Shown here one piece after another: positions 1,383-35,613 of a DNA stretch of 64,000 nt; the first letter of the stretch is position 1, and each line of letters starts with the position of its first letter. Location: assembly GCA_041650755.1 (NCBI GenBank), contig JBAZKN010000002.1:5030-69029 (forward strand), in the 5' to 3' direction. This DNA is from Patescibacteria group bacterium. Lineage in GTDB: Bacteria > Patescibacteriota > Patescibacteriia > UBA1558 > GWA2-36-10. The notes under the pieces were generated by a model. The model was not told the origin of the DNA and did no database searches. It worked only from the letters and a program-made list of their open reading frames with translations. Made by a program: the position numbers and the translations under genes.

Positions 1383-2126
1383 CTAGGAGCGCTGGAAGGC
1401 TTCAATGGGCGGATTACCGCCGAGCCCTGCACCCAAAGAGTAGATAGCCCGAGTAGCTCTATCAGCAATGGCCCGTTTGACTGTTCGTGGGTCTGTTTGG
1501 TCGGCATTGGCGATAAGGTCGCTATAGTCGACCGGCTGTCCGAAAGCAATCAGAATGTCTTTTCCGTTGTGGAAACGCTCCTCTCCCAAGGGGAAGACCT
1601 TTTCCATACCATCGATCCAGACCGGGACAATGGTAGCCCCAGTTTCATAGGCCACGTGGCCTATGCCGATACGCGGCGTGATTGGTTTGTTTGGACGCTC
1701 TCTGGTGCCGCCCGGAAATACAAAGAGTCGGCCATATCTGGCTAGCCGGCTCATGGCTCGCAAGGCACCAGGATCAATCCGGCTATGGGCGATGGGCTGG
1801 ATTTTCATGCACCAGCCCCAGATAGCCATCAATCTAGTCTTCATGTAGTTGGCCTTGTCTGCCGTGTGCCACGGTAGCAGCCACGGGCAGAAGAAGTCCC
1901 TTAGCCGCATAGCTGCTAGGGTCACCGGGAAGGAGTCTACTAACGTAAGGTGCCGACAGGCATAGATCACATTGCGGCCATGGGGTACGTGATGACGGCC
2001 AATGACCCGAGTGCGGTTGAATATGAAGAAGATGACGAAGGTCGCCGATCCAAATAGCGCTAGGATCGGCCAGCGCACCAGGTCAGCCAAGTACATCTTG
2101 GTGACCCTCCACCCAGAGATCTTCAT
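1383..2126 (-). CDS. Lysophospholipid (1-acyl-sn-glycerol-3-phosphate) acyltransferase-like protein (high-GC cassette A)
   Basis: The FPGGTRER acyltransferase motif and an N-terminal TM segment. Local GC about 56% against a backbone below 40%. Strong SD GAAAGGAG 7 nt before the ATG at 2126 (MKISGWRV). GC-rich terminator hairpin downstream (1330-1360). Confidence 0.55.
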   Translation of the reverse strand: MKISGWRVTKMYLADLVRWPILALFGSATFVIFFIFNRTRVIGRHHVPHGRNVIYACRHLTLVDSFPVTLAAMRLRDFFCPWLLPWHTADKANYMKTRLMAIWGWCMKIQPIAHSRIDPGALRAMSRLARYGRLFVFPGGTRERPNKPITPRIGIGHVAYETGATIVPVWIDGMEKVFPLGEERFHNGKDILIAFGQPVDYSDLIANADQTDPRTVKRAIADRATRAIYSLGAGLGGNPPIEAFQRS

Positions 2127-6693: not shown

Positions 6694-7239
6694 TTAGTAG
6701 TCAATACCCGGTCTGGCAATCAAGCCCTGGCTGATGTAGTGTTTTTTGGCATTCATTTCGGTCACCAAATCCGCCAGATCCACGATTTCTTGGGGGCAAT
6801 AGCGCCCTGTCAAAATCAGCTCCAAGTTTTTTGGTTTTTGCTTGATCAAGATAAGGATATCGTCGCAATTTAGCAGGCCAGTTTTTACCGTGGTATTTAT
6901 TTCATCCAGTATCAGTAAATCAAAATTTTTTTTGAACCATAGTTTTGCCTGTTTGATGGCCGCAGCTGCTCCTTTGATGTCGCCAACCTGATTTTTGAAA
7001 CGGAAGCCCTTATTTTTTGACAGGCGCGGTAGACCGAAAGCGCAATAATCTATGTTTAGGTGCTTTATCTTGTCCAGGATTTTTCTTTCACTATAATAAT
7101 CGCCGCCTTTATCAAAATATATGATGCCCACCTTTAGTCCTTGTCCTAAGGCGCGGATAGCCAATCCTAAAGCAGCTGTGGTTTTACCTTTGCCGTGGCC
7201 AGTATAGACATGGATTTTTCCTAATTTATTATTTGACAT
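6694..7239 (-). CDS. cobO: Cob(I)alamin adenosyltransferase (CobA/CobO/BtuR family)
   Basis: P-loop VYTGHGKGKTTAALGLAIRALGQG is typical of BtuR/CobO. Start taken at MSNNK (7239). The 17 upstream codons in the ORF track are GC-rich sequence belonging to the adjacent island. Confidence 0.8.
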   Translation of the reverse strand: MSNNKLGKIHVYTGHGKGKTTAALGLAIRALGQGLKVGIIYFDKGGDYYSERKILDKIKHLNIDYCAFGLPRLSKNKGFRFKNQVGDIKGAAAAIKQAKLWFKKNFDLLILDEINTTVKTGLLNCDDILILIKQKPKNLELILTGRYCPQEIVDLADLVTEMNAKKHYISQGLIARPGIDY

Positions 7240-7304
7240 AAAGTCAGCATTTGTGTTTAAATTTTGAGGTCCCCCGGCTGTTCTTTTCATCAGGGAGGGC
7301 AGCC

Positions 7305-16248: not shown

Positions 16249-16968
16249 ATGGACAAAGCGTTGTTGGAACAGGTGGCCGGGCGACTAGACGAGAAAGTCG
16301 CCGTGGCCCAACTACTGGTGGTGCACATGCTCGCTTCTGACCCTCCTTCATCCGAGGTTGATATGCTGGCCATTCACGGACTCTCGGCCGGCATGTACCA
16401 GAGCGGGAATCTCCTGGAGTGCGCTGCCGAGCTCTGGCGTTCAGGGCTTGCCAGCCACATGGCAGTGGTCGGCGGTGACGGCAGTCCGACGGGCCAGTCG
16501 GCTCCGGGAGCATCCTGGGTCGGGTCCAGCTTTCTGATCGAAGAGCTGGCCAAGCGCGAAGTCCCCCAAGACCAGATCATCGTGATGGATCCCATCACCC
16601 ACACCAAGGAGGAGGCTTACGCCATCGTCCGGGCGGCCATGAAGCACGGGTACCGGAGCGTGATGAGCGTAACGGTGCCTTACCATGGCCCCAGAGTGCT
16701 CTCCTGCCTGGTCGCGGTGATGAAAGAGTTGGGCTACTGGATCGAGTGGCACATGATGGTGCCGCCCAAGGTCAACTGGACCCTGGAGATGGTCGCTTCC
16801 CAGGGCAAGGGCACGACCAACTCCCTGTTCGCGGCCATGGACGATGCCGCCAAGGTCCAGAAGTACGTGGACAACAGTTTCGGTGCTTCCTACCCGGAGG
16901 TGATCTACTACCTGCTCAATCGTGCTCGGATCGTCGAGCACCAGCAGTGGGATTTCCCTGGGGCGTAA
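16249..16968 (+). CDS. DUF218 (YdcF/ElyC/SanA)-like protein, high-GC cassette E
   Basis: SD aAAGGAGGcctc ATG. GC about 62%. Motifs VVGGDGS, THTKEEAYAI and TVPYHGPRV align with the DUF218 GG, NTxENA and TSxxHMxRA boxes. Confidence 0.5.
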   Translation: MDKALLEQVAGRLDEKVAVAQLLVVHMLASDPPSSEVDMLAIHGLSAGMYQSGNLLECAAELWRSGLASHMAVVGGDGSPTGQSAPGASWVGSSFLIEELAKREVPQDQIIVMDPITHTKEEAYAIVRAAMKHGYRSVMSVTVPYHGPRVLSCLVAVMKELGYWIEWHMMVPPKVNWTLEMVASQGKGTTNSLFAAMDDAAKVQKYVDNSFGASYPEVIYYLLNRARIVEHQQWDFPGA

Positions 16969-23853: not shown

Positions 23854-23924
23854 ATAATGTTAAGTCGTACATAGACAACTATTCTGTAGCTTTTCTTGGC
23901 CTTTTGGCCAGAAGGGAGACCATA

Positions 23925-24959
23925 ATGAGCGGGACAGTTCGTCTAGTCAAGAAAATCGTGACTCATGTCAAGCCCCATCTGGATGAGCTGGTGGCCATTT
24001 GGCTGCTCGTCCGGTGGGGGGAGAAACACTTCCCCGGCATCAACACTGTGCCAGTAGAGGTCTGGCGCAAGGGGTTGGAGTCCGCCGACGGCCGCTCCTT
24101 TGAGGAGCATGAGGACGAAGGCACGATGTTCATCGGGATTGGCGGCGGCCAGTTCGATGAGCACCCGACCAACGGCACTGACGATCTGTCTGGTGAGTGC
24201 GCGGCCACTCTGGTCGCCAAGCGTCTGGGCATCCAAGACGACCCGGCTCTCGAAAGGATTCTGGACTTCGTTCGTCGGATTGACACCAAAGGTGGCGCCA
24301 ATCCTTGGGACATCTCGGCTGTCGTTAAGGCGGCCAACGAAGTCGGCAAAGGTCTGCCGGAGCTGCTCACCTGGGTGTTCTTGGCGCTTGATGCCAAGTA
24401 TGAACAGCAGGTCAAGTTCCTCGAGGCAGAGGCCGATGCCAACATCGCCCAATGGGATACGGTCGGCTCTGTGCGGGTAGCTACCGCAGAATCTGACAAC
24501 CAGCAGGTCTACAAGGTGCTTTTCACTAGGGGTGCGGCGGTGGCGATTGTTCGCCGGCGTCAGGATGGCCGAGTGGCCATCTTCACGCAGAAGCGTGACA
24601 ACATCAGGCTCACTGACGCTGTCAGGATCATCCGCCGCTTGGAGCAGAAGGCTCGCGGCGATGTCAGGACTACCAACTGGAAGGAGCTGGCAGCGCCTGG
24701 TTCCATCGACGCTGTGGCGCGCTGGTACTATCTTAAGGAGGGTGAAATGCTGCTGAACGGCAGCGATACCCACCCCGATACGCCGGCTACCGGTCTGTCC
24801 CTTTCCACCATCCGTCAGGCGGTCATCTTGGCCCTTTCTGGCGAGATGATCTGCTCGCAGGCCAATGTCTGCGACGGGAAGTCCTGCAAGTGGTATCAGC
24901 TCGGCCTGAGCCGGTGCCAGACAATTCGCTACAGAATGTCGAGTGGCCAATCGCAGTAG
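23925..24959 (+). CDS. MYG1/UPF0160-like metal-dependent hydrolase, high-GC cassette G
   Basis: N-terminal KKIVTHVKPHLDELVAIWLL fits the MYG1 T-H-x-x-x-H-x-D-E signature. GC about 60%. SD present. Terminator downstream. Confidence 0.45.
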   Translation: MSGTVRLVKKIVTHVKPHLDELVAIWLLVRWGEKHFPGINTVPVEVWRKGLESADGRSFEEHEDEGTMFIGIGGGQFDEHPTNGTDDLSGECAATLVAKRLGIQDDPALERILDFVRRIDTKGGANPWDISAVVKAANEVGKGLPELLTWVFLALDAKYEQQVKFLEAEADANIAQWDTVGSVRVATAESDNQQVYKVLFTRGAAVAIVRRRQDGRVAIFTQKRDNIRLTDAVRIIRRLEQKARGDVRTTNWKELAAPGSIDAVARWYYLKEGEMLLNGSDTHPDTPATGLSLSTIRQAVILALSGEMICSQANVCDGKSCKWYQLGLSRCQTIRYRMSSGQSQ

Positions 24960-24983: not shown

Positions 24984-25030
24984 AAGAGCTCGGAGCGGCG
25001 TCAGCCGACACCCCGAGCTCTTTTCTTTTT
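24984..25030 (+). terminator. Intrinsic terminator ending cassette G
   Basis: aagagctcgg ... ccgagctctt ttctttttat (10-bp stem). Confidence 0.75.
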
Positions 25031-25087
25031 ATAAATTTTTTACAAAAGCGTATTCGAAACCAGCAAAGCAACCTGAGCTAAGATAAA

Positions 25088-25140
25088 TTTTGAGGTTGCG
25101 AAGCAAGTTGAGCGCAGGCGAGCTGAGTTCGCCGAAGTCG
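25088..25140 (+). promoter_or_regulatory. Three to four degenerate ~17-18-bp direct repeats (gcRaagcaaSYtgagc-like) immediately upstream of a promoter
   Basis: gcaaagcaacctgagc / gcgaagcaagttgagc / gcaggcgagctgagttc / gccgaagtcgaaacttgac. Candidate binding array for a transcription factor. Confidence 0.35.
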
Positions 25141-25144
25141 AAAC

Positions 25145-25173
25145 TTGACAAAACCATTTTTTTGTGCTATCAT
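25145..25173 (+). promoter_or_regulatory. sigma70-like promoter TTGACA-N17-TATCAT
   Basis: ttgaca aaaccatttttttgtgc tatcat. Confidence 0.5.
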
Positions 25174-25188
25174 TACTATGTAGTTTGA

Positions 25189-25230
25189 AATTGGCTTTGA
25201 GCCCCAGTAGAAGGGGCGGCCAATTTTTTT
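25189..25230 (+). terminator. Attenuator-like intrinsic terminator between the promoter and the first small ORF (or 3' end of a ~45-nt sRNA)
   Basis: aattggc tttga gcccc agtagaa ggggc g gccaatt ttttttt. Confidence 0.5.
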
Positions 25231-25243
25231 ATTATAAAAATAT

Positions 25244-25402
25244 ATGATTACTAATGCTCTTCAAACCCCAAAATTACAGTCATTTAAAATGGTAATAAAG
25301 CCCGGCGATAGCAAATTACGTTCGGGCGATTATTGGGCAATTTTGGTTTTGTGCTTGGTTGGCTCTATTACCTTAATTGTGATGATGACTCAGGCCATTT
25401 AA
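25244..25402 (+). CDS. Small single-TM peptide 1 (52 aa)
   Basis: MITNALQTPKLQSFKMVIKPGDSKLRSGDYWAILVLCLVGSITLIVMMTQAI. Paralogous C-terminal half with peptide 2 (xWAIxxLxxL...VLM). Confidence 0.3.
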   Translation: MITNALQTPKLQSFKMVIKPGDSKLRSGDYWAILVLCLVGSITLIVMMTQAI

Positions 25403-25426
25403 AATTAATAATTAAATATAAAATTT

Positions 25427-25573
25427 ATGACTCCAGAAGGACCAATGTGCCAAGTAAAGTCTTGGAAGAGAGCTGGCTTTTATTGTAGCCCAGAAGTAGC
25501 CAGCCATGAAAATTGGGCAATTTTCAGCTTGGTAGTTTTGAGCTACTTTGTGTTAATGAGCACCATAGTATAA
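25427..25573 (+). CDS. Small single-TM peptide 2 (48 aa)
   Basis: MTPEGPMCQVKSWKRAGFYCSPEVASHENWAIFSLVVLSYFVLMSTIV. Confidence 0.3.
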   Translation: MTPEGPMCQVKSWKRAGFYCSPEVASHENWAIFSLVVLSYFVLMSTIV

Positions 25574-25586
25574 AGATTTAAAATAT

Positions 25587-25664
25587 ATGTGGTCAAAAAC
25601 ACAGCTCTTGGGCCCCCTGATATTATTATTATTTACCTGGGCCCCCTATGCTCTTTATTGTTAA
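25587..25664 (+). CDS. Small hydrophobic peptide 3 (25 aa)
   Basis: MWSKTQLLGPLILLLFTWAPYALYC. Speculative. Confidence 0.2.
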   Translation: MWSKTQLLGPLILLLFTWAPYALYC

Positions 25665-25718
25665 AAAATAAACAATATGTCACCATGATTTTTTAAGGTT
25701 CGCTCTAAGGCCTACCTG

Positions 25719-25753
25719 CCCACCCTGTACCATATGGTATGGGGTGGGTTTTG
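25719..25753 (+). terminator. Intrinsic terminator ending the small-peptide unit
   Basis: cccaccctgtaccata/tggtatggggtggg followed by tttt. Confidence 0.65.
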
Positions 25754-25813
25754 ATTAGAAAATAATCAGTATTTTTGTTATAATACCATTAGCTTAGAAA
25801 ATTAAACATTATT

Positions 25814-27550
25814 ATGGAGAACAGAAATAATTTGAGTTGGAAAATCGGTGGTGAGGCCGGTTTTGGCATAAAGTCGGCCGGCATAAGCCTTGGCAAAATT
25901 TTCATGAAAGCCGGTTATGAAGTTTTCGACTATACCGAATATCCATCTTTGATAAGGGGCGGGCACAATACTTACCAATTGATGATAGATAGTCAAAAGG
26001 TGAACGGCGTCAGTTTGGCGATAGATGTCCTGGTGGCCCTCAATCAGGAGACTATTACCAAGCATGCTGGTGAACTGGTAGACCAGGGCGTGATAATTTT
26101 TGATCACGAAAATATTGAGGCCAAAAATTTGAAATTAGACAAAAAAATAAACCTTTTGGGCGTGCCTTTGTCTGTTCTGGCAAATCAAGCTGGTGGCGAG
26201 TTGATGCGCAACGTAGTGGCTATGGGCGCCACCTTGGCTTTGGTTGGGCAGGATTTAGCGATTGCTAACCGAGTCATCAAAGACACTTTTCAGAGTAAGG
26301 GAGAGGGGGTTGTCAAAAATAATTTACAGGCGCTGTCTTTGGGTTTTGAATATGTCAAAAAGAATTACAGGCAAAAATTCATTTGTCATCTACCCACTAA
26401 GACTGATCACCATAATATCTTACTGGCTGCCAACGAAGCCATGGCCTTGGGGGCTTTGGCCGGCGGTTTAAATTTTTATGCTGGCTATCCCATGACGCCA
26501 TCTTCTTCAATTCTGCACTATTTGGCTGGTGTAGCCGAGTCAGCCAGTATAGTGGTGCGTCATGCGGAAGATGAAATATCAGTAATTAATATGGCTTTGG
26601 GGGCTGCTCATGTTGGCGCTCGGGCTATGATAGCTACTTCGGGCGGCGGTTTTGCCTTGATGGTAGAGGCTTTGGGTTTGGCTGGTATGACTGAGACTCC
26701 TCTGGTGATTATCAATGTTATGCGGCCTGGTCCAGCTACTGGTCTTCCTACCTGGACTGAGCAGGGTGATTTACAATTTGTCCTGCGGGCAGCTCAGGGA
26801 GATTTTCCCAGGATAATTTTGGCGCCTGGCGATGCAGAGGAGGCTTTTTATTTGACAGCCGAAGCCCTGAATTTAGCTGAAGTTTACCAGACGCCGGTGA
26901 TAATTTTATCGGACAAATTTATCGGTGAAGGTAATAGCACCGTGCCTAAATTTGACACCAAAAAAATTAAAATTGACAGAGGCAAATTATTGACCGAAGA
27001 GCAGCTCAAGAAGATCAAAGATTACCAGCGTTATCAGGTGACCAGTGACGGCATTTCTTCGCGCGCCTTGCCGGGCATGATAGGCGGCTTGTTTGTGGCC
27101 AATAGCGATGAGCATGATGTCTATGGCTTCGTGTCAGAAACATCGTCTGATCGCAAGCAGCAAGTAGACAAACGGCAGCGCAAATTGGAAACTATGGCCA
27201 AGAATTTGCCCGAGCCACCGGTACACGGTAATCTAAAAGGGCCAAAAACCATTGTTTTGTGGGGTTCGACCAAGGGCCCGGTTTTGGATGTATACAATTC
27301 TTTGCCGGCAGAGAAAAAAGCCGAGATCAAGATTTTGCAGCTTCAATATTTGTGGCCATTTCCGGTAGATTTTGTGGCAGAAATTTTGCGGAAGTCCAGC
27401 AAAGTTTTGTTAATAGAAAATAATAATAATGCTCAAGCCGGTCAATTAATTGCCCAAGAAACGGGGATCATTATTAAAGATAAATTATTAAAATATGATG
27501 GCCGCCCGTTTTTCAGGGAAGACTTGGTTGCGGCTTTAAATAAATTATAA
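25814..27550 (+). CDS. 2-oxoacid:ferredoxin oxidoreductase alpha subunit with fused N-terminal gamma domain
   Basis: The N-terminal 180 aa resemble the POR/KOR gamma subunit (GGEAGFGIKSAG), followed by the alpha domains. 578 aa. An extended -10 (tgttataat) lies upstream. Confidence 0.8.
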   Translation: MENRNNLSWKIGGEAGFGIKSAGISLGKIFMKAGYEVFDYTEYPSLIRGGHNTYQLMIDSQKVNGVSLAIDVLVALNQETITKHAGELVDQGVIIFDHENIEAKNLKLDKKINLLGVPLSVLANQAGGELMRNVVAMGATLALVGQDLAIANRVIKDTFQSKGEGVVKNNLQALSLGFEYVKKNYRQKFICHLPTKTDHHNILLAANEAMALGALAGGLNFYAGYPMTPSSSILHYLAGVAESASIVVRHAEDEISVINMALGAAHVGARAMIATSGGGFALMVEALGLAGMTETPLVIINVMRPGPATGLPTWTEQGDLQFVLRAAQGDFPRIILAPGDAEEAFYLTAEALNLAEVYQTPVIILSDKFIGEGNSTVPKFDTKKIKIDRGKLLTEEQLKKIKDYQRYQVTSDGISSRALPGMIGGLFVANSDEHDVYGFVSETSSDRKQQVDKRQRKLETMAKNLPEPPVHGNLKGPKTIVLWGSTKGPVLDVYNSLPAEKKAEIKILQLQYLWPFPVDFVAEILRKSSKVLLIENNNNAQAGQLIAQETGIIIKDKLLKYDGRPFFREDLVAALNKL

Positions 27551-28416: not shown

Positions 28417-29223
28417 ATGAAAAATATTTTTTTTAGTAGACAGAACGGTGGGTTTTCTCTGGCAGAAATAGTGATAGTAGTGGCTATTTTGGCGATTTTG
28501 GGAGCAGTTATATTTTATTGGGTTGATCCAGCTGCCAAAGTGGGTACTGCTAGAGATAAAAAGCGCCAGCATGATGTTTTGGTGATTAGTGGCGCATTGT
28601 CTGATTATGTGCAGAAACATAAAGGAGCTCTGCCAGTTTTGGGCGCAGTGACCACCAATAAAAAAGTGCTTTGCTCCAGCCAAAGCGGCAGCAATCTGAC
28701 TTGCGATGGTACCTCACAGCTTTGTTTAGTAGTTGATGACCAAAACTTTTATGATAAATATTTGTCGGCCTTGCCGGTAGATCCGGAAAAAACCGATACC
28801 ACTGATACAGGGTATTATCTCCAGAAAGATTCAGATGGAAATTTGGTGGTTGGCGCTTGTACTTATACTGATTCAGCTATCAGCACCAAGCCGGGCATCA
28901 GGGTCAGCTGCACAGCTTATGCCGGCGGTCACTGCTGGTATGCGGGCATAGCTGGGCAGACTTGTGATACGGTTTGTGCTGCTCAAAGCCTGGTTTGTTC
29001 CTCGGGTGCGACCTATGGTCCCGATGTTTATACCGGCAATCATCCATTCTGCGTTTTAAATAAAGCCTTGGGGGCTACCTGCGGCACCAATTGTCAGGCT
29101 GGCACCAGTGATTACCCGCCTTCTTATACCAGTGACGGCTTGAGTTGTTGGACGCAAAGCAGTGCTATTGCCTGCGATAGTATTCGCGATGCGGGCGACA
29201 TCAACGCTTGCCCGTGCGAATAA
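28417..29223 (+). CDS. Type IV pilin/pseudopilin with prepilin N-terminal methylation motif and Cys-rich C-terminal domain
   Basis: GFSLAEIVIVVAILAILG class III signal. About 20 Cys in the C-terminal 150 aa. Confidence 0.75.
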   Translation: MKNIFFSRQNGGFSLAEIVIVVAILAILGAVIFYWVDPAAKVGTARDKKRQHDVLVISGALSDYVQKHKGALPVLGAVTTNKKVLCSSQSGSNLTCDGTSQLCLVVDDQNFYDKYLSALPVDPEKTDTTDTGYYLQKDSDGNLVVGACTYTDSAISTKPGIRVSCTAYAGGHCWYAGIAGQTCDTVCAAQSLVCSSGATYGPDVYTGNHPFCVLNKALGATCGTNCQAGTSDYPPSYTSDGLSCWTQSSAIACDSIRDAGDINACPCE

Positions 29224-29234
29224 TTTTAGAGTAA

Positions 29235-29262
29235 AACTTCAAGCCAAACTTGAAGTTTTTTG
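29235..29262 (+). terminator. Intrinsic terminator after the pilin gene
   Basis: aacttcaag ccaa acttgaagtt tttt. Confidence 0.7.
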
Positions 29263-29309
29263 TTGTATTTTTTTGTGTTATAATAAAGCCATTATTTGAT
29301 TAAAATCTT

Positions 29310-31970
29310 ATGTTTTGGAAAAAAGTTTATCATCACGCCAGTTTTATATTTTTAGCTATTTTGCTTTTTGCCCAATGCTTGGTTTTGGTGGCCACTCAAG
29401 CCCGGCCAAAAGCCAGCTATGATTTGGCGGCTATTTTTATTGAGCCAATGCCTTATACCAGCTTGGCAATCGGCGATTCCGTCAGTCTACAGGCCAGATT
29501 ATCCAGTAAAGCGGCTAACAATTTTTCTTCGGTATATTTTATTGTTGCCAATGCTGATAAAAACATTAGTTTAAATTTTGAAGCAAGTAAGCAAGTTGAT
29601 GGCTCGTGGCTGGCTGACAGCACCTGGCAGACCACTGATTGGCCCGGAGCGATTTATCAAATTTCAGTCACAGCCAACATCACAGATGCCAATGGTCAGC
29701 TGATTGATAGCTTGAATTCTGCTCCGCAACTTGTTCAACTGGTGGATATGGGTACTGGAGAAAGTGTTTTGCCAGCAAAAACCAGTAGCGTTTCGACTAG
29801 CACCCAGGCAGCCGCTGATGAGTCCATGCCCCTCCCCACAAAGACAAACCAAACTACTTCTACGCCGCCGGATACTAGTTCGGATAATAGCCCCTCTAGT
29901 GATGCCAGCACACCGACCAGCACCAGTCCCACCAGTACTACCACCCCCAGTGATTCAGATAAAAACATAATTTTATTATCGCCGGCTAGCGGTAGTATTA
30001 TTAGTGATTCACAACTATCGGTGAAACTAACCACTAATTTTGAGGCTGACGTCGTCAGTGTGGAATTAATAAATACAAATAATGCAGCTATCAGTACCGG
30101 TAGTATAGATATAAATAAGGTGGATGGTTTGAGTTGGGACAAAACTCTCACCTTGGGCAACACTTTTATAGATGGCGACTATAAACTATTGGTATCGGCC
30201 GATCCAAAAGATGATATGGCAAGCATTGAAAAGGCGTTTGATTTTATGTTGGCTCTGACTGGCGCTGATACTGAAAATCAAGATTTAGCAATATCTTTGC
30301 TTAATATTGGTTCTAATTTATCTGGTTCAGTGACTTTGAGGGCTATGGCGACGGCTAATGCCAATAGCGCGGGATTTTTAATCACAAATTCTTTGACTGA
30401 TGCGGAAGTTTTACTGGCAGCTGGAGTCCGCAAGGCAAGTACTGCTAGTACAAGCAGTGAATATTTATATATTTGGGACACGAAAACCGCAGCTAATGGT
30501 AATTATTTTATCCAAGCTCTAGCCTATGCTGGCGGGAACACAGTCAAAAGCGAGAAAAAATTGATCAGTGTTTTTAATGAAACCACCGGCAATGAAGAAA
30601 TTGTCAGCTCCACCCAAGAAATAGAAGGCGAACCTACCGATATTCCAACCCCAGAGGAGCCAATTTCAGAACCGAGTGATAGTGGGCTAGATTGCGCAAA
30701 GTCAGGCATCGCCGATCAAATAGCCTGTGCTAAATTTATGGCTGAGTTGAGTGGAGTTTTCCCCAGTGCCTGCCTTAAGGCTGGCGTGTATGATGCTGAA
30801 GCCTGTGAACAATTTTTGAACCAAAGCCTTTCAGTAGAATGCCAGGAGCAGGGCATTACTGACGCTGAAAAGTGCAAGGATTATTTGATGCAAAAATATG
30901 CCAGCCAAGTAGTTTGTCAGCTGACAGCTACTAGCACTTGTGCTGATTTATTACGCGACGATTATTTGAATCGCCTAGCAGCCATTATCAAACAGCGAGA
31001 TTTTTTATCAAGCGCTACCGCGGCAGTATTAAATCAGACTTTATCAGTCACCGACCTTAATCAAAAATTAAAGGAAAGCGGCTTGTCAGAAGATCTGTCT
31101 ACTTTAGCCACCCCAGAATTGAAGGTTATGGTAGTCAAGGCTCAGGCAGAGACGATTTTGGCTGCAGATGATAAACTCGAAATTACGCCACCGGCCATTC
31201 TTTTGCCGGATAACGACAGTGATATGCTACCTAATGATTTGGAAAAATATTATGGCACTGATTTGAATAATGCTGACACTGACAATGATGGCTACAAAGA
31301 TGGAGAGGAAGTCAAAAATGCCTATAACCCCTTAGGCCAAGGCAAATTAGCTACTGTTAGGACAGTTTTAGACCAAATTATTTTAAGCAACTTGAGCCTA
31401 GAACAACCAAAAAGCTCTTCTGGACTGCTTTTGGATACCAACTGGCAAGTGATGGCGGCCGATTCTCAAAATGGCAACTTGGCTTTGAGCGGTCAAGCTG
31501 ATCCCGAAACTTGGGTCAATATTTATTTATATAGCGGCTTGCCCATATTGTTGACAACTAGAACTGATGCTAGCGGCAAGTGGACTTATGATTTGCCGGC
31601 TAATTTGAGTGAGGGTGTGCACCAAGCTTATGTAGCCATTAATGATGCTAGCGGCAAGATCATTAAGCAATCAGCCGCTTTGATATTTTCTGTGACAAAT
31701 TTATCCGCCCCAGCAGCCAGCGCCCAAGTCACTTTTACGGATGAATCTCCCGTCAAACCTAGTTTTCAATTTGTTTGGTGGTATTTTATTTTAGCCGGTG
31801 TAGCGGTCTTGATCGTGGCCTTAGTTATTATTTCGGTAGCTCGCCATCGTCGCCAAGAAGCGTTCCTATCGAGTAGTCAGCCTATCGCCGGAGCAGTTGA
31901 TAGCCGGGTCAATACCCAGACCATGCCCAGTACGCCTCCTAGTGATACGCCAACCGGTTTTCCTCAATAG
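29310..31970 (+). CDS. Large secreted/cell-surface protein (886 aa) with Ser/Thr-rich linker, thrombospondin-type-3-like Ca-binding motif and C-terminal TM anchor
   Basis: Signal peptide. STSTQAAADESMPLPTKTNQTTSTPPDTSSDNSPSSDASTPTSTSPTSTTTP linker. DNDGYKDGEE motif. TM segment FQFVWWYFILAGVAVLIVALVII near the C-terminus. Confidence 0.7.
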   Translation: MFWKKVYHHASFIFLAILLFAQCLVLVATQARPKASYDLAAIFIEPMPYTSLAIGDSVSLQARLSSKAANNFSSVYFIVANADKNISLNFEASKQVDGSWLADSTWQTTDWPGAIYQISVTANITDANGQLIDSLNSAPQLVQLVDMGTGESVLPAKTSSVSTSTQAAADESMPLPTKTNQTTSTPPDTSSDNSPSSDASTPTSTSPTSTTTPSDSDKNIILLSPASGSIISDSQLSVKLTTNFEADVVSVELINTNNAAISTGSIDINKVDGLSWDKTLTLGNTFIDGDYKLLVSADPKDDMASIEKAFDFMLALTGADTENQDLAISLLNIGSNLSGSVTLRAMATANANSAGFLITNSLTDAEVLLAAGVRKASTASTSSEYLYIWDTKTAANGNYFIQALAYAGGNTVKSEKKLISVFNETTGNEEIVSSTQEIEGEPTDIPTPEEPISEPSDSGLDCAKSGIADQIACAKFMAELSGVFPSACLKAGVYDAEACEQFLNQSLSVECQEQGITDAEKCKDYLMQKYASQVVCQLTATSTCADLLRDDYLNRLAAIIKQRDFLSSATAAVLNQTLSVTDLNQKLKESGLSEDLSTLATPELKVMVVKAQAETILAADDKLEITPPAILLPDNDSDMLPNDLEKYYGTDLNNADTDNDGYKDGEEVKNAYNPLGQGKLATVRTVLDQIILSNLSLEQPKSSSGLLLDTNWQVMAADSQNGNLALSGQADPETWVNIYLYSGLPILLTTRTDASGKWTYDLPANLSEGVHQAYVAINDASGKIIKQSAALIFSVTNLSAPAASAQVTFTDESPVKPSFQFVWWYFILAGVAVLIVALVIISVARHRRQEAFLSSSQPIAGAVDSRVNTQTMPSTPPSDTPTGFPQ

Positions 31971-33325: not shown

Positions 33326-33400
33326 GCCCCTATAGTTCAACGGATAGAACAGCGGCCTTCTAAGCCGTCGATGTAGGTTCGATTCCTACTGGGGGCACCA
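33326..33400 (+). tRNA. tRNA-Arg (anticodon TCT)
   Basis: GCCCCTATAGTTCAACGGATAGAACAGCGGCCTTCTAAGCCGTCGATGTAGGTTCGATTCCTACTGGGGGCACCA. Confidence 0.85.
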
Positions 33401-33514
33401 CCGATAGTTTTTGCGGGACTCCGCCAGTTGGCGGACTCGCAGAGAGAGTAAACCCCTGTGGTAATAGTAGTTATGCACCTTTACATTTTTTACCACAGAT
33501 GTTAATATATCCCC

Positions 33515-33958
33515 ATGACATGGGAATATATAGCAGGTTTTTTTGATGGCGAAGGATCCATAGTTTACAATGGTAGTGGTTTTAGATTAACAATCGCCCA
33601 AACGAACCTTACGGTGTTAGATAGTATAAGTAGGTTTACAAAAATTGGTCAGGTTATAAAGGTCACCAAACGTCAGGTTCACTGGAAAGATAGTTGGGTA
33701 TATTATATAAGCAAACAGGAAGACATTTTATTTTTTGTGAGACATATCCAAAATTTTTCAATAGTTAAAAAACAAAAAATAAATATAGTATTGCCGAGGC
33801 TCATAAAAGCAGTTTCCAATAATAGAGATAGGATTTTAAAGAGACAACTATTGACTAAATCAGCTAAAGCTCTGAGAAAAAATGGTTTAAGTTATAGAGA
33901 AATAGGCAAGAGATTAAATATGGATTTTGGACAAGCGCGTCGTTTGATAAAAAGATAA
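33515..33958 (+). CDS. Free-standing LAGLIDADG homing endonuclease with C-terminal HTH
   Basis: MTWEYIAGFFDGEGSIVYNGSGFRL: single LAGLIDADG motif (IAGFFDGEGS). C-terminal GLSYREIGKRLNMDFGQARRLIKR. 147 aa. No flanking intron or intein context found. Confidence 0.7.
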   Translation: MTWEYIAGFFDGEGSIVYNGSGFRLTIAQTNLTVLDSISRFTKIGQVIKVTKRQVHWKDSWVYYISKQEDILFFVRHIQNFSIVKKQKINIVLPRLIKAVSNNRDRILKRQLLTKSAKALRKNGLSYREIGKRLNMDFGQARRLIKR

Positions 33959-33970
33959 GATTATTTACAT

Positions 33971-34048
33971 GGTGGCAGTAGCTCAGTTGGTTAGAGCATC
34001 GGGTTGTGGTCCCGGCGGTCGTGGGTTCGAGACCCATCTGCCACCCCA
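33971..34048 (+). tRNA. tRNA-His (anticodon GTG) with encoded G-1 and CCA
   Basis: G-GTGGCAGTAGCTCAGTTGGTTAGAGCATCGGGTTGTGGTCCCGGCGGTCGTGGGTTCGAGACCCATCTGCCAC-C-CCA. Confidence 0.85.
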
Positions 34049-34350: not shown

Positions 34351-35613
34351 ATGTCGACCATGCTGCAATCCCAGGTCATCGAAAGGCTTCTGAAGTACGC
34401 GCGGGTCAACACCCGTTCGCTTCAGGCCATGCCGGGCGAGGAGCTCCCTCACCCAAGCAGTCCGGAGCAGGTGGTCTTGATCGACCTGTTGCTCTCCGAG
34501 CTGTCCGACATGGGGGTGCCGTCCAACTGGACCAGGAAGCTCGAAGACGCTTCGTTCCTGATCGAGATCCCCGCGACCGAGGGCCACGAGAACGCCCCGC
34601 ACGTCGTTCTGGCTGCGCACGTGGACACCTACTTCGGCTGTCCCGGCGGGGCCAACCCGATCATCCACGAGTACCAGGGCGGCGACATCGCGCTCCCGAA
34701 CGACAACGTGGTCATCCCGGCCTCGGACCTTGCCGGTCTCGAGGGCAAGGGGATCATCACCGCTGACGGCACCACGCTGCTCGGTGGCGACGACAAGTGC
34801 GGAGTCGCGGCCATCATGACCTTCATCGAGAGCATGCTGGCTCACAATCTGCCGCACGGTCCGCTGACCATCTGGATCTGTACCGACGAGGAGGTCGGCG
34901 AGGTCGGCGTGAAGTTCCTGCCTTCGGGCACGGCGGAGAAGTGGGACTTCTTCTGGACCGTGGACGGGGAGCGTCTCGAAGTCGTGGACATTGGCTGTTT
35001 CTACGGCTCCTCGGTCGACGTCGAGTTCATCGGCAACGATTCCCATCCGGGTGTCTCCGGCCACTCGCTCAAGCCCGCCCACTACGCCGCCTGTCGCTTC
35101 GTGGATCAGCTCGGCCTGGCGCCGACGCCCTGGCGGACCAGCGGCGAGGAGTCGTTCATCTACGTGCCCTCTCTGCCCGCCTGCACGGCCGGCAAGTCGA
35201 CGATCAAGGTCTTCCCGCGTACCTTCCGCCAGGAAGAGATCCCTGAGATGCGGGAGACGATCCGGCTCGTGGCCGAGGAGGCGGCTTCGCACTACGGCGT
35301 CCAGGCCGTGGTCAGTGAGGCCAAGATCCTCTACGTCTCCACCGAGGTCGCGATCGACCAGAACCGCCACCTGTTGCAGCCGGGTCTGGACGCGATCCGG
35401 AAGTTCTGGGTCGAGCCCAAGCTGCATCGCGTGCGCGCTGGCACCGACGGCGCCATGCTGAACATGACGTACCCGAAGATCCCGTCGCCGAACATGGGAG
35501 CCGGGGCCCGCAACTTGCACGGCGTTCGCGAGTTCGTCGTGCGGGAAGAGCTCCAGCTCGTCCCGGAGATCATCTCCGAGATGATCGGAATCTACGCGAC
35601 CATGTCGCGCTGA
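34351..35613 (+). CDS. M20-family peptidase (peptidase T/PepT-like tripeptidase), high-GC cassette H cargo
   Basis: HVDT, GGDDKCGVAAIM, TDEEVGE, GTDGA and NLHGVREF motifs of M20B. GC about 62%. SD AAGGAGG 9 nt before the ATG at 34351. Confidence 0.75.
   Translation: MSTMLQSQVIERLLKYARVNTRSLQAMPGEELPHPSSPEQVVLIDLLLSELSDMGVPSNWTRKLEDASFLIEIPATEGHENAPHVVLAAHVDTYFGCPGGANPIIHEYQGGDIALPNDNVVIPASDLAGLEGKGIITADGTTLLGGDDKCGVAAIMTFIESMLAHNLPHGPLTIWICTDEEVGEVGVKFLPSGTAEKWDFFWTVDGERLEVVDIGCFYGSSVDVEFIGNDSHPGVSGHSLKPAHYAACRFVDQLGLAPTPWRTSGEESFIYVPSLPACTAGKSTIKVFPRTFRQEEIPEMRETIRLVAEEAASHYGVQAVVSEAKILYVSTEVAIDQNRHLLQPGLDAIRKFWVEPKLHRVRAGTDGAMLNMTYPKIPSPNMGAGARNLHGVREFVVREELQLVPEIISEMIGIYATMSR

Follow-up and report, generated by a model that had tools for sequence, protein, structure and literature searches.

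A 0.7 kb unit (positions 25088-25753) of the window, the 64,000-nucleotide stretch of a Patescibacteria group bacterium analysed here (GenBank assembly GCA_041650755.1, contig JBAZKN010000002.1, positions 5,030 to 69,029 of the forward strand), carries three small open reading frames (ORFs) in tandem. We read it as a vertically inherited, highly transcribed operon of small membrane proteins, predicted to be hetero-oligomeric and throttled by a leader attenuator, and assign this reading a probability of roughly 60%. An earlier interpretation made from the DNA letters alone (the sequence-only reading) had proposed a bacteriocin, pheromone or small-toxin locus, or a regulatory small-protein operon, controlled by a DNA-binding protein that recognizes upstream repeats. 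Its small-protein operon stands and its hairpin proved to be conserved, whereas the repeat-binding regulator, the bacteriocin or pheromone locus and the small toxin are not supported. The features of the unit are as follows.

25063..25144, + strand: lineage-specific spacer with the supposed direct repeats; absent from the closest relative and without periodicity
25145..25173, + strand: near-consensus sigma-70 promoter TTGACA-N17-TATCAT with a TRTG extended -10 and an A-tract/T-tract spacer (11/12 match plus TG)
25178..25186, + strand: predicted transcript 5' end, ATGTAGTTT; relatives keep the equivalent ATGTAAGTT
25187..25230, + strand: leader hairpin and 7-T run with the shape of an intrinsic terminator (stem 25187-25227, T7 25224-25230)
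25244..25402, + strand: ORF1, 52 amino acids (ratio of nonsynonymous to synonymous substitution rates, dN/dS; conserved motif; annotated gene)
25427..25573, + strand: ORF2, 48 amino acids, ORF1 paralog (hhalign, dN/dS)
25587..25664, + strand: ORF3, 25 amino acids (tblastn, dN/dS)
25677..25688, + strand: 3-codon mini-ORF ATG TCA CCA TGA (MSP and stop), putative relic of ORF4, a fourth gene of more distant relatives (A-rich leader; alignment of the region after ORF3)
25693..25716, + strand: conserved non-coding element TTAAGGTTCGCTCTAAGGCCTACC, kept in 11/11 near relatives
25718..25753, + strand: operon terminator, a 14 bp stem (25718-25749; 8 G-C pairs) followed by TTTT

Related loci were fetched as those encoding relatives of KorA and were then searched with the three peptides, starts and stops being checked by frame tracing; a second, independent set of loci was reached via ORF1 homologs and not via korA. 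In about 21 of the KorA-relative loci the peptide search recovered all three ORFs in unchanged order, and ORF3 was found by tblastn in about 23. The unit is present in at least 24 related loci of Komeilibacteria-like Patescibacteria, and alignments of 24 sequences were used for each ORF. Reading frames, start positions and stops are kept in at least 24 loci although synonymous divergence is saturated. The substitution statistics (mean pairwise differences at codon positions 1/2/3, and median NG86 dN/dS) were

ORF1: 0.41/0.20/0.60; dN/dS 0.20
ORF2: 0.45/0.32/0.58; dN/dS 0.26
ORF3: 0.41/0.26/0.52; dN/dS 0.31

so that substitutions are ordered 3>1>2 by codon position in all three ORFs. Comparison with the closest relative, locus L065, gives 9/4/18 differences at codon positions 1/2/3 in ORF1, 4/2/14 in ORF2 (dN 0.053, dS 0.87) and 2/1/5 in ORF3, and korA shows the same pattern (24/19/90). 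Purifying selection also covers the N-terminal soluble motifs. The codon-position pattern and dN/dS of 0.05-0.3 indicate that ORF1-3, including the 25-codon ORF3, are protein-coding genes, as judged from comparative sequence. The sequence-only reading had named Ka/Ks of about 1, with conservation at the level of RNA structure only, as the outcome that would speak against coding; the ratios found here are clearly of another kind. The three small ORFs of 52, 48 and 25 amino acids that it had picked out evolve as coding sequence, and the tblastn comparison it had suggested shows them in order and under coding constraint in the related loci. The unit also lies, as had been claimed, in the longest ORF-free part of the window, 25082-25801 being the longest internal stretch that is free of ORFs of at least 60 amino acids.

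The product of ORF1 is listed at NCBI as 'hypothetical protein [Patescibacteria group bacterium]'. In the public annotations examined, ORF1 and ORF2 are the only genes of the unit that are called; ORF3 and the ORF4 relic are uncalled. ORF1-3 each follow an A/U-rich leader that lacks a Shine-Dalgarno (SD) sequence, and in the relatives the starts of ORF2, ORF3 and ORF4 stand behind A-rich leaders such as AAUAAAAAUAAAAAUAUG. SD-like sequence precedes just 7 of the 50 long ORFs of the window, mostly G+C-rich and foreign-looking ones, and the SD-less, A/U-rich start is the native start style of this genome. A subgroup of Parcubacteria has been reported to lack the 16S anti-SD motif (PMC9297842). 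With SD sequences rare on the genes of the window and the anti-SD motif reportedly lacking in that subgroup, the missing SD is no argument against translation of ORF1-3.

The ORF1 family has the consensus SF(K/R)L(V/I)(I/V)(K/R)PGDxKLRSxDYWAI followed by one transmembrane (TM) helix, and residues F14, P20, G21, L25, D29, Y30 and L44 are invariant in 47 sequences. ORF2 follows the same plan, with the consensus KS(F/W)(K/R)L...P(E/x)V(E/A)SHENW(A/S)(I/V) and then one TM helix. In ORF3 a short polar N-terminus leads into a conserved hydrophobic tail, (I/V)LL(L/I)FSWAPY(A/T)LYC, and a stop. Comparison of the ORF1 and ORF2 profiles with hhalign gave a probability of 95.6% (E = 1.2e-8, 39 columns), and an exact 13-nt repeat, ATTGGGCAATTTT, is common to the two genes. 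The two peptides had been described as paralogous in their C-terminal TM halves; the profile comparison strengthens this and shows them to be paralogs over their whole length. Models calculated with AlphaFold2 (AF2) from the family alignments place a single helix at residues 27-51 of ORF1 and 22-47 of ORF2, with a predicted local distance difference test score (pLDDT) above 90 (about 93 for ORF1), and the 17-residue Kyte-Doolittle mean of ORF1 is 2.79; the helices and the hydropathy agree with the single-TM character noted earlier. Hydropathy and the K/R residues on the N-terminal side suggest an N-in, tail-anchored topology with the N-terminus predicted to be cytoplasmic. The tryptic peptides of the soluble N-terminal segments include MVIKPGDSK and AGFYCSPEVASHENWAIFSLVVLSYFVLMSTIV.

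A word-indexed search with the ORF1 profile returned 47 clusters of 46-56 amino acids, all named 'hypothetical' and from Patescibacteria wherever an organism was given; the ORF2 profile returned 29 clusters named 'hypothetical protein'. An exhaustive HMMER search of 1.84e9 representatives gave only 13 clusters (50% identity) at E<1e-3, and a few distant relatives of 42-85 amino acids also carry the SFxL motif. ORF1-3 had no significant match in Pfam, NCBIfam or PADLOC, and searches of PDB sequences with the ORF1 and ORF2 profiles gave insignificant matches only (best E 0.086). A cytochrome b559-like (PsbE/PsbF) heme pair, prompted by the YW.I motif, was considered and rejected on account of mismatched histidine positions and the lack of a match in the PDB profile search. 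ORF1, ORF2 and ORF3 are unnamed small-protein families restricted to one clade of the ultra-small Patescibacteria.

The unit lies nearly always between a divergent ferredoxin-IscS-NifU cluster on the opposite strand and korAB on its own strand, korA/korB encoding a 2-oxoacid:ferredoxin oxidoreductase (KOR). The loci reached via ORF1 homologs show AhpC, patatin, superoxide dismutase (SOD), NifU, IscS and ferredoxin genes on the opposite strand, then the unit in forward orientation, then korAB; recovery of the same neighbourhood by this route means that the synteny is not an artefact of locating the loci through korA. At least 24 genomes have the unit in a single copy per locus, always at the same syntenic place. 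No relatives of the family were found in IMG/VR, and a viral or mobile origin was ruled out on this basis. The closest KorA relatives belong to Komeilibacteria/Parcubacteria metagenome-assembled genomes, and by its distribution the unit appears to be vertically inherited in a Komeilibacteria-like clade of Patescibacteria.

The promoter, already recognized as TTGACA-N17-TATCAT in the sequence-only reading, was recovered at 25145-25173 with the extended -10 TG in addition. It is the best site of the region and unique in the window, and occurs once per related locus, aligned across the relatives and with a spacer that is nearly the same in every locus. When metagenomes were scanned for the spacer pattern, 121 promoter matches came back, only three of which were accompanied by the hairpin and ORF1. 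A specific operator in the spacer was rejected: the same A-tract/T-tract/TRTG shape is present in all 121 matches, so the spacer represents a generic strong-promoter shape of A+T-rich bacteria, and the promoter would indicate high transcription, not specific regulation. It is the only recognizable promoter predicted 5' of the ORFs, and the unit is read as one putative transcript from it; no second promoter for the unit was recognizable in relatives L002, L007 and L014. At the predicted transcript start, positions 25178-25183 hold a start-stop pair, ATG-TAG, with aligned counterparts in about 20 relatives (ATG-TAA in most, GTG-TAA in L010). The pair may represent a leaderless mini-ORF, or it may just belong to the conserved 5' flank.

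The leader hairpin begins 14 nt past the -10 box and ends 16 nt 5' of the ORF1 ATG. It is two-tiered, its 3' arm runs into the seven T residues, and it folds with an energy of -20 to -22 kcal/mol (z -3.5 to -3.7). The hairpin also forms in each of the 14 relatives tested (-13.8 to -22.4 kcal/mol, z -2.7 to -6.2); it is followed by at least five U/T in all relatives and occurs in this unit only. Across 18/18 sequences the outer U-A/G-C/G-C pairs do not vary, and relatives keep the sequence of both the stem base AAUUGG/CCAAUU and the 5' flank (A)UGUA(A)GUU. The inner stem is wholly different between sub-lineages and always still paired, by compensatory change. This comparison was made on per-sequence folds, the MAFFT/RNAalifold alignment misaligning the variable inner stems. 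The leader thus has a stable G+C-containing stem and U-run between promoter and first cistron, the arrangement of an intrinsic terminator. No covariance model of Rfam 15 reached or approached its gathering score at the leader or the unit, in the window or in 13 related loci, and no competing antiterminator, ligand-binding fold or leader peptide was identified for the hairpin. Because only 16 nt separate it from the ORF1 ATG and a second promoter is lacking, the constrained ORFs would be expressed only through the hairpin, which would make it a leaky or regulated attenuator or a 5' stabilizer and not a full stop. The sequence-only reading had called the hairpin an attenuator or the 3' end of a 45-nt small RNA (sRNA); it stands as a conserved leader feature, and the sRNA survives as a rival of about 50 nt, weighed below.

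In relatives with long 5' untranslated regions (UTRs; L014 2824-2960, L016 2910-3075, L017 109-244, L015 2393-2572, L008 and L006) a second hairpin is seen 5' of ORF1, together with the motifs GCCCCAA, AACUUAC (complementary to the 5' GUAAGUU) and ACUUCC. Minimum-free-energy folds of these long-UTR relatives close the 5' end onto AACUUAC(AT) through a helix GUAAGUU/AACUUAC. The closing helix, as part of a three-way-junction leader, is not claimed here: no single locus beats its shuffled sequences, and the window gives it no support. The long-UTR relatives may have a three-helix leader RNA, without a match in Rfam.

The block upstream of the promoter does not belong to this conserved architecture. 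Tandem Repeats Finder, run at its lowest threshold, reported no repeat in it; the autocorrelation maxima are at offsets of 40, 35 and 20 and not 17-18; and its sole repeat is a 16-nt sequence in two copies of 81% identity, 35 nt apart. The pentamer YTGAG occurs four times at a spacing of 16-18 nt (25075, 25091, 25109 and 25125). The block (about 25040-25144, approximately 100 nt) is missing in L065, in which about 20 nt separate the upstream terminator from the -35 box, and 20 further loci were compared: the other relatives have unrelated sequence in its place. Only L013 has CAAGTTGAGC..GTCGAAAC in common with the window, immediately 5' of the -35 box. The spacer is probably not a functional part of the unit. 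The earlier description of about 3.5 degenerate direct repeats of 17-18 bp is not supported by these searches, and a DNA-binding protein that reads them loses its basis, since the supposed repeats lack periodicity and even the nearest relative does not share them. The repeat-operator idea was ruled out by Tandem Repeats Finder, the repeat search, autocorrelation and the comparison with L065 and the 20 other loci.

In 12 more distant relatives (L006, L008, L010, L011, L013-L019 and L028) ORF3 is followed by ORF4, a gene for about 55 amino acids with the pattern MSF(F/L)xK(L/I)LG...QII..P.HE...APPDELM...NNKDSP and stop. It has no TM segment, evolves with a dN/dS of about 0.36 and gave no significant match in Pfam or NCBIfam. 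The mini-ORF of the window, MSP and stop, matches the two opening codons of ORF4 together with its final ones. Mini-ORFs of two or three codons occupy this site in all near relatives: MSP and stop in L065 and L068, MPP and stop in L002, and ATG-codon-stop in the L003/L007 group. From these alignments ORF4 appears to be ancestral, collapsed to a start-stop relic in the sub-lineage of the window.

Between the relic and the terminator lies the conserved non-coding element, with a 15-nt core (G)CTCWRAGGCCTAYC at 25702-25716 (the window reads GCTCTAAGGCCTACC). It is kept in each of the 11 near relatives, although their synonymous divergence is saturated; it was not seen in the relatives that keep ORF4, and no consistent structure was found for it. 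The strong terminator named in the sequence-only reading closes the unit, and the relatives have a terminator at the equal position with other stem sequences. A separate conserved korA promoter follows at 25756-25784, 3' of the unit terminator; across 25754-25784 the relatives read ATTAGA(A/T)AATAAT-N7-TTTCTGNTATAAT, and the GATAAT-rich 5' half could be an operator, perhaps Fur/PerR-like. Short G+C-rich palindromic insertions, such as attccgcctcggctcgaccgagtcgagacggg and ggaatagtttccgc...gcggaaactacc, were observed in the conserved non-coding stretches of relatives (L065 2157-2190, L002 3840-3885, and L021 between the korA promoter and the korA ATG) and look like miniature mobile palindromic elements.

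In the operon proposed here, transcription would start from the promoter at 25145, open with the terminator-shaped hairpin and U-run, pass through the three cistrons and end at the operon's own terminator before the korA promoter. The three peptides would assemble in the cell membrane as a hetero-oligomer, with ORF3 as a hydrophobic mini-subunit of 20-25 amino acids, and the SF(K/R)L...DYW/ENW N-terminal segments would probably be surfaces at which a partner docks or is regulated. By position only, the neighbouring ferredoxin/KOR redox module is a candidate for this partner. The hairpin would serve as a leaky or regulated attenuator, possibly also as a 5' stabilizer, and would thereby control how much of the hydrophobic products is made from a very strong promoter. 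A fourth, soluble partner (ORF4) would be ancestral and lost in the sub-lineage of the window.

Several observations weigh against this proposal. Translation of ORF1-3 is deduced from evolutionary constraint, and their N-terminal segments, which would carry the docking surfaces, are modelled with low confidence by AF2 (pLDDT 51-67). The protein, PDB and Rfam searches gave no homology to any characterized protein or RNA family, so that we infer both the assembly of a complex and the link to ferredoxin/KOR. That link is weak, since the unit has its own promoter and terminator with the separate korA promoter next to it, lies 3-3.8 kb away from korA in L017 and L019, and is missing from relatives with a KorA less than about 60% identical; adjacency to korAB may be plain synteny. 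The window, where just about 8 nt precede the hairpin stem, showed no alternative pairing of antiterminator type, and the sequence would fit an attenuator, a 5' stabilizer or a separate 50-nt RNA alike. A more specific version goes further. The tail-anchored paralog pair, the mini-subunit of 20-25 amino acids and the ancestral soluble partner would form a micro-complex specific to Patescibacteria, its cytoplasmic SF(K/R)L...DYW/ENW motifs recruiting or gating ferredoxin or KOR at the membrane of a bacterium without a respiratory chain, with dosage set by a new kind of leader RNA, a hairpin of terminator shape that has a sequence-conserved base and, in sister lineages, is extended to three helices; we regard this version as quite unlikely.

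Among other explanations, the promoter, hairpin and U-run might chiefly be a gene for an sRNA of about 50 nt with the 5' seed (A)UGUA(A)GUU, the peptides being made by read-through from a dual-function locus. The consensus promoter directly followed by a strong stem and seven U residues would suit such a gene, few nucleotides of the locus are as well conserved as those of the 5' segment and stem base, and the complementary AACUUAC occurs downstream in cis in the long-UTR relatives. The cis pairing, however, is not significant in any single locus, and the seed varies by lineage (GUAGUUU, GUAAGGU, AUAGCUA). Trans-acting targets of the leader were sought in the window, which showed no enrichment of complementary sites, and no Rfam family matched. 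The downstream ORFs, moreover, are under purifying selection and have no other recognizable promoter, so that read-through past the hairpin would have to be substantial; we hold the sRNA gene to be a doubtful account of the locus. A type I toxin-antitoxin-like system, with membrane-damaging peptides held at the RNA level by the 5' hairpin, would likewise explain a structured leader behind a strong promoter, and the peptides, at less than 60 amino acids with a single hydrophobic helix, have the size and build of such toxins; ORF3 in particular presumably resembles Ibs/Fst-type toxins in size and composition. An antisense RNA was rejected for want of a conserved minus-strand promoter: the sole antisense promoter-like site (25596 to 25567, minus strand) loses the -10 T in L065, and no positionally conserved minus-strand promoter was found in L002, L007 or L014. 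Three or four co-linear cistrons at one fixed site in at least 24 genomes, neither patchy nor multicopy nor mobile, are not the distribution of a toxin, and neither the purifying selection on the N-terminal soluble motifs nor the absence of a PADLOC match and of viral copies favours one. The small-toxin locus of the sequence-only reading loses ground on the same evidence, and toxicity is an improbable function here.

For secreted peptides (bacteriocin, pheromone or RiPP, i.e. ribosomally synthesized and post-translationally modified peptide, precursors) one can cite the tandem small ORFs with their paralog pair and the conserved aromatic/Cys tail FSWAPYALYC of ORF3. The sequence-only reading had named such a locus among its proposals and had suggested a search for leader cleavage and for export or modification genes. 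No double-glycine (GG/GA/GS) or other leader-cleavage motif was found in the three peptides or their orthologs, and no ATP-binding cassette exporter with a peptidase (C39) domain and no immunity, radical-SAM, LanM or other modification gene was found up to about 6 kb away in the loci examined; the genes nearby (window, L070-L072) are ferredoxin/IscS/NifU/SOD/AhpC/patatin and korAB/pilin-like/Ig-like genes. A conserved N-terminal segment joined to a TM helix is the design of an integral membrane protein, and the distribution is strictly vertical and syntenic, leaving secretion very hard to credit. Equally slight is the chance that the peptides are upstream regulatory ORFs (leader peptides) controlling korAB. 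The unit is immediately 5' of korA in most genomes, as this would require, yet the terminator at 25718-25749 and the separate korA promoter at 25756-25784 intervene, the 3-3.8 kb of L017 and L019 is intercalated, and the peptide sequences are conserved far beyond the needs of a leader peptide. A purely non-coding structured RNA in which the ORFs arise by chance would match the non-coding look of the region and the somewhat better folding of the whole transcript than its shuffles (z -3.35). It is effectively refuted by the codon-position pattern and dN/dS in all three frames, by the frames, starts and stops kept across the loci, and by the lack of an Rfam match.

Prli42 of Listeria anchors the stressosome, and tail-anchored micro-proteins tether or modulate larger complexes, as do CydX, KdpF and AcrZ. 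Like these four, the peptides of the unit are shorter than 60 amino acids, with one TM helix and a short conserved soluble segment that possibly docks a partner, and the unit is chromosomal, vertically inherited and not secreted; unlike them, it shows no sequence or profile similarity to any of the four. CydX, KdpF and AcrZ are single genes, usually in or beside the operon of the partner, whereas the unit comprises three (ancestrally four) micro-proteins with a private promoter and terminator and, unlike those genes, is not co-transcribed with korAB as a partner operon. It shares with the Fst, Ibs, TisB and Hok toxins small hydrophobic peptides, a strong promoter and a structured 5' leader, and differs from them in being polycistronic and synteny-fixed, with a constrained soluble N-terminal motif and no antisense RNA gene found. 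The leader resembles the attenuators and 5' stem-loop stabilizers of Gram-positive leaders (aprE, ermC) in its G+C-rich, A-U-closed stem and U-run within the first 55 or so nucleotides, and its structure, as in these leaders, is kept by compensatory change. Unlike a plain terminator, its stem base AAUUGG/CCAAUU and 5' flank are conserved in sequence, beyond what a terminator needs. Tandem small ORFs including paralogs recall class II bacteriocin and pheromone loci; in contrast to those bacteriocin loci, the unit lacks a leader-cleavage motif and export, immunity or sensor genes, and its peptides have the build of membrane anchors. Operons of small membrane proteins behind a structured leader are a known kind of object; the families themselves are unnamed.

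The window is matched by the metagenomic contig k141_3127890 (ENA ERZ27247363; 236 kb). Its average G+C content is about 43%, with a few islands of 50-60%, and the unit is placed between a 60% G+C island (a 351-residue ORF, 23904-24959) and korA/korB, which start at 25814. The 351-residue ORF comes with an SD-like GGGAGA and a terminator of its own (24984-25030), gave no match in Pfam, NCBIfam or PADLOC, and has counterparts in L065 (466-1524) and L066 (1099-2151). It separates the divergent ferredoxin gene from the unit only in the closest relatives of the window; in most others the ferredoxin gene is directly adjacent. It looks horizontally acquired. Further islands of 50-56% G+C lie at 1383-2126 (- strand), 6694-7290 (- strand), 16249-16968 (+ strand) and 34351-35613 (+ strand), with an acyltransferase, a CobA/BtuR corrinoid adenosyltransferase, a DUF218 protein and an M20 peptidase among the island products. 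GGAGG-type SD sequences occur on several of these island genes and almost never on the A+T-rich native genes, which suggests that G+C-rich foreign genes keep their SD signals in a host possibly without an anti-SD. Beside a G+C-rich island, a LAGLIDADG-type ORF (33515-33958; region 33326-34048) lies between tRNA-Arg(tct) and tRNA-His(gtg). Directly 3' of korB, at 28417-31970, a 268-residue pilin-like protein with an N-terminal methylation motif is followed by an 886-residue protein with Ig-like/TSP3 repeats; the pair is kept in L070-L072. The divergent ferredoxin of L072 is fused to a FUR domain.

The unit is probably not a bacteriocin or toxin locus. It illustrates polycistronic translation that relies on A-rich leaders in place of SD sequences, as well as the decay of a gene to a start-stop relic, and it offers testable targets for tagging, multimer modelling and metatranscriptome mapping. 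Small proteins are under-annotated, notably in uncultured bacteria of the candidate phyla radiation/Patescibacteria, and genomes of about 1 Mb retain little that is dispensable. The survival of three micro-genes through saturated synonymous divergence, behind a consensus promoter and beside ferredoxin, iron-sulfur and KOR genes, argues for an important and abundant membrane function.

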